UHGV virus genome: UHGV-1788306
Source: a virus
Strand: one strand, 5' to 3'
DNA: 11,132 bases
Part shown: positions 9,008 to 11,120 of the stretch, piece by piece
How the letters are laid out: each line of letters begins with the position of its first letter
Numbering within the stretch: the stretch's first letter is position 1
Position numbers and translations under genes: made by a program
Notes under the pieces: generated by a model
What the model was told of the DNA's origin: nothing
The model's database searches: none
What the model saw: only the letters and a program-made list of their open reading frames with translations

Positions 9008-9657
9008 TGACGACGATTACTGAAATCATCGGACGAGTGAACACGCAACTGGTTGACCCGATGATGGTGCGCTGGCCTCTGGCTGAGCTGTGTGATTATT
9101 ACAATGATGCTGTGCGGGCGGTGATTCTGGCAAGGCCGGATGCAGGCGCAAGTCTGGAGACGCTGAATTGTGTTCCTGGTGCACGTCAGACTTTGCCTGA
9201 TGGCGCAATACAGCTTCTTGACGTGATATGCCTCAGCGATGGCAGTGCTATAAAACCGCAATCCCGTGAGGTGCTTGATGCACAGTATCCCGACTGGCAC
9301 ATGCTGAGGGGGAAACCGGAATGCTTTATCAGCAGTGACCTTGCCCCGCGCGTGTTCTGGCTGTTTCCGGCACCGGAGGAGGCTGTGAGTGTTGATGCTG
9401 TGGTCAGCCGCATTCCGGAGGCGGTGTATGTTCTGACGCAGGATGATGACACGCCTGTACCGCTGGAAGAGGCTTATGTTAACCCGCTGGTTGACTGGAT
9501 GTTGTTTCGTGCATTCAGCAAGGATGCAGCCGGTGGTGCAGAGTCAGGACTGGCAGCACAACATTATCAGAGTTTTGTTGAGCAGCTCGGGATTAAACAG
9601 GGTGCAGACAGTGCATTGTCTGCCCGCAAGAAGGTGTTTAACGGAGGTGGAATGTGA
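9007..9657 (+). CDS. Hypothetical phage protein (candidate fiber-attachment or adaptor protein; function unknown)
   Basis: 216-aa ORF, translationally coupled at both ends: ATGA overlap at its start, and its stop TGA (9655-9657) overlaps the GTG start of the fiber gene. Confidence 0.6.
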
Positions 9658-11120
9658 GTGTTGTTGTTTCGGGGACGCTGAAATCTCCTGATGGTGAGGC
9701 AATATCAGGCGCAAATATTACCCTGACGGCGCTGACAGTTTCACCGGATGCGCTCAGCGGCACCAGTGCGTCAGCAGTGACTCGTGACGGCGGGTATTAC
9801 GGAATGACGCTGGAGCCGGGGGAGTATGCGGTTTCTGTGACGGTGAAAGGGAAGACTGCTGTCTACGGACGTGTGCGTATTGAGGGGACTGAAAGTACGG
9901 TGACGCTCAATATGCTGTTACGCCGCAGTCTTGTTGAGGTGAGCATACCCGGAGAACTGCTGACAGATTTCCGGCAGATACAGAACAATGTGGCGGATGA
10001 CCTTGCCACGATTCGTCGTCTGAACGAAGACACGGCGGTGAAAAATAATCAGGCTTCACAGTCGAAGGAAAGCGCTGCTGCCAGTGCGAAGACTGCATCA
10101 GAAAGCGCGAAGGCTGCGACCAGCAAAGCGACGGAGTCTGCACAAAAAGCCAGTGAGGCTGCAGAGGCGGCGACCCGGGCAGGTGAGTCTGAAAAGGCAG
10201 CGGCAGCTGACGCTAAAGAGGCCAGACGACATGCTGAAACCGCCAGAGTGGCTCAGGAGGCCGCCGGAGACGTTCTTAAACGTGCTGAGGCTGCTACAGT
10301 TAGTGCTGAAGAAGCCAGACGTATGGCTGAGAATGCACGAGGACCTAAAGGCGATACAGGGCCGAAAGGTGATGCTGGTCCTCGTGGTGAAACAGGTCCG
10401 GCGGGTCCGCGTGGGGAGAAAGGTGAGCAGGGAGAGCGCGGACCTCAGGGCATACCGGGCCAGAAAGGTGATACAGGAGAACGGGGACCTCAGGGAGTAC
10501 AGGGGCCAGTTGGCGCAACAGGGCCATCTGGCCCACGTGGTGCGACCGGGCCACAGGGAGCAATGGGGCCGCGTGGTGAAACCGGGGCCAGAGGCGAAAA
10601 AGGAGACCCGGGGGGGCCTCAGGGACCAAAGGGGGATACTGGTCCGAGAGGTGAGCCGGGGCCGGCAGGAGCAAAGGGAGAGCGCGGTGAGACCGGACCT
10701 GCGGGGCCGAAAGGTGACACCGGCCCACGTGGAGAGGCCGGACCACCCGGACCACAGGGTCCGGCAGGGCAAACCGGCCCGAAAGGGGATAAAGGTGAAC
10801 CCGGCGCAACAGGTCCGGCAGGTCCCGCAGGCCCTCGGGGAGAAACCGGCCCCGCAGGTCCTGCGGGTCCCGCAGGCAGTGTCGCCAGTGTTCCGGATGC
10901 CAGCACATCACAGAAAGGTGTTGTACAGCTGAGCAGCGATACCAACAGCGATGATGAAACAAAAGCGGCAACTCCAAAGGCTGTGAAAGCGGTAATGGCA
11001 GAAGTGCATGCAGCAAAAACGAAGGCAGAAGAGGCAGCAACCCGGGCAGCAGTCCCCGGACCGAAGGGGGACAGGGGCATAAGCGCTAACTTAAGGGTTG
11101 TGGTATTACGCCTGATATGA
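9654..11120 (+). CDS. Side tail fiber (Stf-like) protein with a collagen-like Gly-X-Y repeat region
   Basis: 488-aa ORF with GTG start and strong RBS GGAGG (9643-9647, 6-nt spacer). The N-terminal ~90 aa ([24 protein letters not shown]…) resemble my recollection of the lambda Stf N-terminus (MAVKISGVLKDGTGKPVQNCTIQL…). An Ala/Ser/Glu/Lys-rich helical repeat region follows, then 59 G-X-Y triplets, then the conserved fiber motif [28 protein letters not shown] (around nt 10914-10998; lambda Stf has [28 protein letters not shown]). Confidence 0.85.
10341..10877 (+). repeat. Collagen-like coding repeat (Gly-X-Y)n inside the tail fiber gene
   Basis: Thirty G-X-Y triplets, one extra Gly, then 29 more triplets (179 aa). 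The region is GC-rich with repetitive GGN-CCN codons, which produces spurious long ORFs in other frames and on the opposite strand. Confidence 0.9.

Follow-up and report, generated by a model that had tools for sequence, protein, structure and literature searches.

The 11,132-nucleotide (nt) DNA stretch of the virus genome UHGV-1788306 (hereafter the window, meaning the whole stretch that was analysed) contains a gene for a collagen-like lateral tail fibre that runs directly into the insertion sequence (IS) IS421/IS186. The gene is read as an open reading frame (ORF) of 488 amino acids (aa) at 9654-11120 on the + strand; its GTG start overlaps the stop codon of the upstream gene, and it possesses a Shine-Dalgarno sequence, a start codon and a stop codon. 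The 488-codon ORF is the truncated remnant of a fibre gene cut by IS421/IS186 and not a complete fibre. The features of the gene and of the IS are as follows, with domain names after the EPcl nomenclature for collagen-like proteins of Escherichia coli prophages.

9654..11077, + strand: lateral tail fibre gene, 5' 1424 nt (codons 1-474 and 2 nt of codon 475), cut by the IS
9654..9950, + strand: N-terminal beta-rich domain, carboxypeptidase-regulatory-like, aa 1-99 (putative PfN); predicted tail-attachment end
9951..10340, + strand: Ala/Ser/Glu-rich heptad coiled coil (PCoil), aa 100-229, predicted from periodicity, composition and model helices
10341..10877, + strand: collagen-like tract Col1, aa 230-408, 179 aa (30 GXY triplets, an extra Gly, 29 GXY triplets and a Gly)
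10602..10625, + strand: interruption of Col1, G-D-P-G-G-P-Q-G, aa 317-324, the extra Gly being G320
10902..11027, + strand: Phage_fiber_2 (Pf2) repeat, aa 417-458 (PF03406, E 6e-16)
11058..11077, + strand: start of the second collagen tract (Col2), GPKGDRG (two and a half triplets), from the alignment with intact alleles
11078..11132, + strand: left terminal 55 nt of IS421/IS186, the first bases being the terminal inverted repeat CATAAGCGCTAACTTAAGGG; the window ends inside the IS

Junction of the fibre gene with IS421/IS186

The bases at 11078-11132 were identical at 55 of 55 positions to the left end of the annotated IS421 in locus L001, where they lie directly before the ATG of the transposase; the annotation describes this element as an IS186-like member of the IS4 family. 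Fibre DNA gives way to the IS at 11077/11078, the IS opening with position 1 of its terminal inverted repeat, and of 5426 complete E. coli genomes 2207 contained the terminal bases of the window, at 8550 places in total. The fibre sequence extends no further than 11077, and the final 13 codons (residues 476-488) as well as the stop at 11118-11120 are therefore encoded by the IS; these 13 residues are unlike the remaining protein. The original prediction had implicitly treated the ORF as a complete protein, an assumption that has to be given up in view of this truncation.

Near-identical intact alleles of the gene, annotated as 'tail fiber protein', measure 2034 nt (677 aa) in L002 and 1989 nt (662 aa) in L003, their sources being E. 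coli DETEC-S792 (99.8%) and phage PhiR12_3, and both fibre genes are 99.8% identical to the window up to the breakpoint. The encoded proteins are the same as that of the window up to G475, beyond which they possess another collagen tract of 115 aa and a C-terminal domain of 94 aa, so that about 200 residues are missing here; only the first 7 residues of Col2 are present in the window, and the remainder of this tract is missing together with the C-terminal domain. The uninterrupted ORF with the signals given above, and the wide range of fibre lengths among complete relatives (594-863 aa), would suit a complete and naturally short fibre variant. We consider such a variant very improbable, since its final 13 residues and stop codon lie within IS421 DNA, which we count as already refuting it, all near-identical alleles run on into Col2 and the C-terminal domain, and no relative shares this tail end. 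The reading that we favour, and hold to be very probable, is that a lateral fibre gene belonging to a 933W/Stx-type prophage is present in the window with its 5' 70% and is interrupted by IS421/IS186 after codon 474.

Several points weigh against this interpretation. The canonical target motif of IS186, GGGG(N6/7)CCCC (PMC5009759), was not found in the intact gene, in the window or at the insertion site, and the exact fibre/IS junction was present in 0 viral contigs and 0 complete E. coli genomes, being known from a single metagenome scaffold. The right junction of the IS and the 3' part of the gene lie outside the window and the scaffold, and a target-site duplication is not demonstrable. As regards the consequences proposed below, the loss of function is taken from the genetics of phage Sp5, and the authors of a cryo-electron microscopy (cryo-EM) preprint on phage phi24B doubt that the lateral fibre binds the terminal receptor BamA (bioRxiv 10.64898/2026.04.10.717836).

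The source of the window is an 11.7-kb ENA metagenome scaffold (ERZ28567571, sample SAMEA2580055), which ends 12 bases past the stop codon inside the IS; the assembly thus breaks 55 nt into the IS repeat and leaves the IS transposase and right end outside the window. An artefact of this assembly, with the gene intact in the real genome and the fibre DNA joined by the assembler to an IS421 k-mer, would fit both the uniqueness of the junction and the insertion site without the canonical motif. The end of a single short-read metagenome scaffold 55 nt into a multi-copy repeat is moreover a typical graph-break position, and a homopolymer frameshift in the small terminase gene (terS) that is unique to the same scaffold could mean imperfect consensus quality. 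A contig end one k-mer into the repeat would, however, be expected for a real insertion as well in de Bruijn graph assembly, a random chimera would rarely hit the outermost base of the terminal inverted repeat, and the flank GGGACAGGGG, which is rich in G, is similar to an authentic duplication made by IS421, the 10 bp GGAAAGGAGG at the copy in L001. Because the join sits exactly at the IS terminus, a real insertion is much more likely than a mis-join, and an artefact appears unlikely to us. If the insertion is real, the reciprocal junction should run from the right end of the IS, CCCTTAAGTTAGCGCTTATG, through a stretch of about 10 bp, GGGACAGGGG, into GGAACCTGGCGC.

Domain composition and length variation of the fibre

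The identification of the gene product as a tail fibre, as originally proposed, was borne out by its membership of the PHROGs tail-fibre families (phrog_366, E 2e-139) and by its relatives annotated as 'tail fiber protein'. Using the Pfam models, the N-terminus was matched by PF13620 (CarboxypepD_reg) at aa 5-86 with 36.4 bits (cut-off 32.3; E 7e-9), and PF08400 (phage_tail_N) scored 18.9 bits, under its cut-off of 26.6. A helical repeat region rich in Ala, Ser and Glu had also been described and was recovered at aa 100-229, a segment composed of 35% Ala, 14% Glu and 11% Ser in which the apolar residues repeat every 3.5 residues (a periodicity reached by 0 of 2000 shuffles); only four L/I/V residues occur at aa 130-229. 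An AlphaFold2 model of aa 1-240, computed without an alignment, had a mean pLDDT of 60.5, at which only the secondary structure is usable, and this low-confidence model places strands up to residue 99 and helices at residues 100-175 and 182-228. The conserved fibre motif noted earlier (KGVVQLSS...) is the Pf2 repeat listed above.

The collagen segment was identified by PF01391 (Collagen) with an E-value of 4e-29 (Pfam). The predicted length of 179 aa stands, whereas the continuous (GXY)59 array that had been described does not, since the extra glycine G320 separates the first 30 triplets from the following 29 and a final Gly closes the tract. The X positions are occupied by Pro (49%) and D/E (34%) and the Y positions by K/R (36%), Thr (20%), Ala (19%) and Pro (8%); for the collagen-like proteins of E. 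coli prophages that Ghosh et al. (2012) named EPclA-D (PMC3368898) the published values are 48/36 at X (Pro, D/E) and 31/20/21/7 at Y (K/R, Thr, Ala, Pro) (PMC3368898). The objection that Col1 might be a compositional artefact was rejected on two grounds: the register of Gly holds over 30 and 29 triplets, with a longest in-register run of 30-31 as compared to a maximum of 8 in residue shuffles, and the position-specific composition matches that of experimentally validated EPcl collagens. The DNA of Col1 has a G+C content of 69% and is free of stop codons in three of the six frames, and for this reason overlapping spurious ORFs occur in the region, in agreement with the earlier explanation.

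For the comparison of fibre length and triplet number across relatives that the original prediction had suggested, fibre ORFs were taken from 79 IMG/VR loci. Col1 measures 122-188 aa in the two-tract alleles sharing the N-terminus, in all of which it differs from 179 aa by whole triplets, and 296-320 aa in single-tract alleles, while Col2 ranges from 19 to 154 aa. The combined PfN and PCoil segments are either 229 or 243 aa long, the difference being two heptads; in the EPcl proteins length differences are likewise multiples of three residues in Col and of seven residues in PCoil (PMC3368898). The Gly-Gly interruption was retained in 46 of 47 collagen-bearing relatives, and the C-terminal ends fall into at least eight unrelated types. 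Between the window and PhiR12_3 a 45-nt indel lies between two copies of the 8-nt direct repeat CGGGGCCG; the other repeats in the collagen DNA are imperfect (60-79% identity, spacings in multiples of 9). Alignments of this kind support length change mediated by repeats as a probable process. The slippage that had been put forward is consistent with the whole-triplet variation and the indel, data that do not distinguish it from recombination.

Fibre genes that end early (228-475 aa, with out-of-frame tails) were also observed in L037, L054, L060, L061, and L063, and broken copies of the gene are for this reason not rare among prophages.

Prophage context, proposed structure and consequences

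The whole window is syntenic with phage PhiR12_3 (99.8% identity) and shares 90-96% identity with many Stx1- and Stx2-converting phages. It encodes the small and large terminase, the portal, a putative scaffold, a capsid protein of the N4-gp56 type, small virion proteins, an adaptor of the SU10 type and the fibre, and we identify it as the morphogenesis module (Sepvirinae-like) of a short-tailed lambdoid phage of the 933W/Stx type. The gene preceding the fibre is the following.

9007..9657, + strand: SU10-type tail adaptor / DUF6682 gene (PF24175, E 9e-32), annotated 'phage adaptor protein', overlapping the fibre start

Its product is likely the docking partner of the N-terminal domain of the fibre. 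The gene downstream of the intact fibre (L002:8708-9286) encodes a DUF4376 protein, not a chaperone of the Tfa type, and is labelled 'tail fibers' in PhiR12_3; a Pfam search returned no family for the 94-aa domain that ends the intact allele (L002:8404-8688; ...GLFQRAY). Collagen-like proteins of Gram-positive bacteria are adhesins, and those of prophages were once discussed in the context of virulence (PMC3368898), which could suggest a bacterial surface adhesin or virulence protein in place of a virion component. Such a role is extremely improbable for the present protein, given that its gene directly follows that of the adaptor inside the head-tail module and that its orthologues were located on virions by immuno-electron microscopy (immuno-EM) and cryo-EM.

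A further possible lesion and other insertions were observed in this module or its relatives. One additional A at 925-932 divides the small terminase gene (window 416-1268) into two overlapping ORFs (183 and 109 aa); the window has A8 where PhiR12_3, with a single 284-aa coding sequence, has A7, and exact matches in viral contigs numbered 0 for the A8 form and 16 for the A7 form. The A8 form is either a second inactivating lesion or a homopolymer error of metagenome assembly. In the same gene a short low-complexity repeat, SAQKNAQKSAQIDTQKSAQKNA, lies at 570-650 between an N-terminal DNA-binding-like part and the remaining protein. In the prophage of DETEC-S792, the nearest relative on a chromosome, an inserted IS200C transposase gene (L002:1580-2038) separates the portal gene from the scaffold gene, and phage GER2 has two transposase genes inside the region matching the window.

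The present analysis itself establishes the identity of the gene, the domains it contains, its junction with the IS and its variation in length by triplets; the formation of trimers and triple helices, the docking on the tail and the loss of function are drawn from the literature. The intact protein would form a homotrimer whose N-terminal beta-domain docks on the tail adaptor ring, an attachment role suggested by the cryo-EM of phi24B gp61. Its shaft would be long and flexible and would consist of a trimeric Ala-rich coiled coil, a first collagen helix kinked once at the conserved Gly-Gly site, a Pf2 knot and a second collagen helix, ending in a small C-terminal domain that may nucleate trimerisation and probably binds a ligand at the cell surface; six such fibres would surround the short tail. 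By insertion the IS would remove Col2 and the C-terminal domain and add 13 IS-encoded residues, and the truncated product would at best be a stub that could trimerise via its coiled coil and dock on the tail, lacking the distal end.

The orthologue ORF67 (ECs1228) of phage Sp5 was reported by Mondal et al. (2016) to be essential for plaque formation and lysogenisation, its deletion rendering the phage non-infective (PMC5155283), and the protein was located at the tail end by immuno-EM (PMC5155283). Since the orthologue is essential in Sp5, the prophage copy in the window is probably non-infective, and most likely it would be unable to make infectious particles. More far-reaching possibilities are that the G-rich GGN-CCN fibre DNA is a recurrent target of IS186/IS421, or that the stub fibre still assembles and the particles adsorb solely via the central needle, both of which we regard as unlikely. 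A target hotspot would provide E. coli with a frequent route to disarm Stx-type prophages, and assembly of the stub would bear on which protein of phi24B/933W recognises BamA.

The disruption by the IS is the sole addition to the known picture, the fibre family itself being already known: it was described biochemically in 2012, genetically in 2016 and structurally in a preprint of 2026, and public genomes already contain annotated alleles that match to 99.8% as far as the breakpoint. The significance of the locus is mostly one of correct annotation. It illustrates that an ORF which looks complete but lies at the end of a contig may consist of a gene joined to the terminus of an IS. With its fibre truncated and terS possibly frameshifted, the prophage copy is also probably defective, a point of relevance when the element is scored as a potentially mobile phage.

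Comparison with characterised fibre families

By domain order, profile matches and gene position we assign the fibre to the characterised EPclB/EPclC family, which includes 933W L0121, Sp5 ORF67 and phi24B gp61. The original prediction did not make this assignment. EPclB has the architecture PfN-PCoil-Col1-Pf2-Col2-PfC (PMC3368898), and the G-X-P-G-G-P-X-G interruption was already published as conserved (PMC3368898). EPclA forms trimers with the circular dichroism (CD) signature of collagen and a trimeric Ala-rich coiled coil, trimerisation being brought about by PCoil and PfC (PMC3368898); the triple helix was established for EPclA by CD, analytical ultracentrifugation (AUC) and electron microscopy (EM) and was inferred for EPclB (PMC3368898). 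According to the phi24B preprint, trimers of gp61 form the six lateral fibres (bioRxiv 10.64898/2026.04.10.717836), their N-domains bind the tail adaptor gp62, which is encoded beside gp61 (bioRxiv 10.64898/2026.04.10.717836), and gp61 comprises a coiled coil from residue 100, a long flexible collagen-like shaft and a small C-terminal globular domain (bioRxiv 10.64898/2026.04.10.717836).

The EPclB orthologues (933W L0121/Z1483, Sp5 ORF67/ECs1228, phi24B gp61) occupy the same gene position as the fibre described here, and EPclB agrees with it in the Pfam profile and in having PfN, PCoil, Col1 with its GG interruption, Pf2 and Col2 in succession; PF08400 remains below threshold in 933W Z1483 as well (17.3 bits, as compared to 18.9 here). 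Alignment with 933W L0121/Z1483 (645 aa) gave identity at 125 of 128 residues for aa 1-128 of the window protein and an overall identity of 76% as far as the breakpoint. Differences concern PCoil, which is 14 aa (two heptads) shorter here than in 933W, and Col1, which is 179 aa long here and 157 aa in EPclB according to the table of Ghosh et al. (PMC3368898), or 155 aa when counted from the first to the last in-register Gly in the 645-aa alleles. The heptads of PCoil, the single interruption of Col1, the EPcl-type composition at X and Y and the Pf2 repeat are all present in the window, whereas a complete Col2 and a C-terminal trimerisation domain are absent as a result of the IS insertion. The C-terminus is formed by PfC/PF06820 in EPclB, by other domains in EPclC and EPclD and by the 94-aa ...GLFQRAY domain (no Pfam match) in the nearest intact alleles; since this last domain is not PfC, the ancestral gene was not a strict EPclB but resembled EPclC*.

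The resemblance to lambda Stf on which the original prediction was based is more limited. With BLASTP, lambda Stf orf-401 aligned to the fibre in the Pf2 region only (54 aa at 54% identity, E 8e-12), no BLASTP similarity was obtained between the fibre protein and orf-314, which is the distal half of Stf, and the PF08400 match is sub-threshold as described above. Remote homology of the N-terminal domains was nevertheless indicated by phmmer against PDB sequences, in which the fibre N-terminus was matched by 9e7m_Ta (E 9e-4), a chain identical to the lambda Stf N-terminus, and by hhalign of 19 distinct N-termini of the window type against the Stf type (97.6% probability, E 4e-12, 26% identity, 129 columns). 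The designation 'Stf-like' thus appears acceptable for the fold of the N-domain and for the Pf2 motif, not for the whole protein. In both proteins an Ala/Ser-rich rod follows the N-domain, but lambda Stf lacks a collagen tract and belongs to a siphovirus, in contrast to the podovirus considered here, and is accompanied by a Tfa-type chaperone where the intact relatives of the window fibre have the DUF4376 gene downstream.

The EPclC-type/lambda_2B8-like side tail fibres of lambdoid siphoviruses, whose N-terminus is MTVRISGVLKDG..., have the Col1-Pf2-Col2 shaft and the ...GLFQRAY domain in common with the intact alleles. This N-terminus together with the shared shaft and C-terminal domain was found in L035, L036, L040, L044, L057, L058, and L062 (compared with L002:6655-8688). 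The fibres of this type differ in having an N-domain of the lambda Stf type, almost no PCoil and a collagen tract starting at aa 136. Taken together, these alignments show a distal module that has apparently been exchanged between siphovirus side fibres and podovirus lateral fibres, and such swapping of C-terminal domains, along with the triplet-wise variation in length, corresponds to the known modular evolution of host-range determinants.

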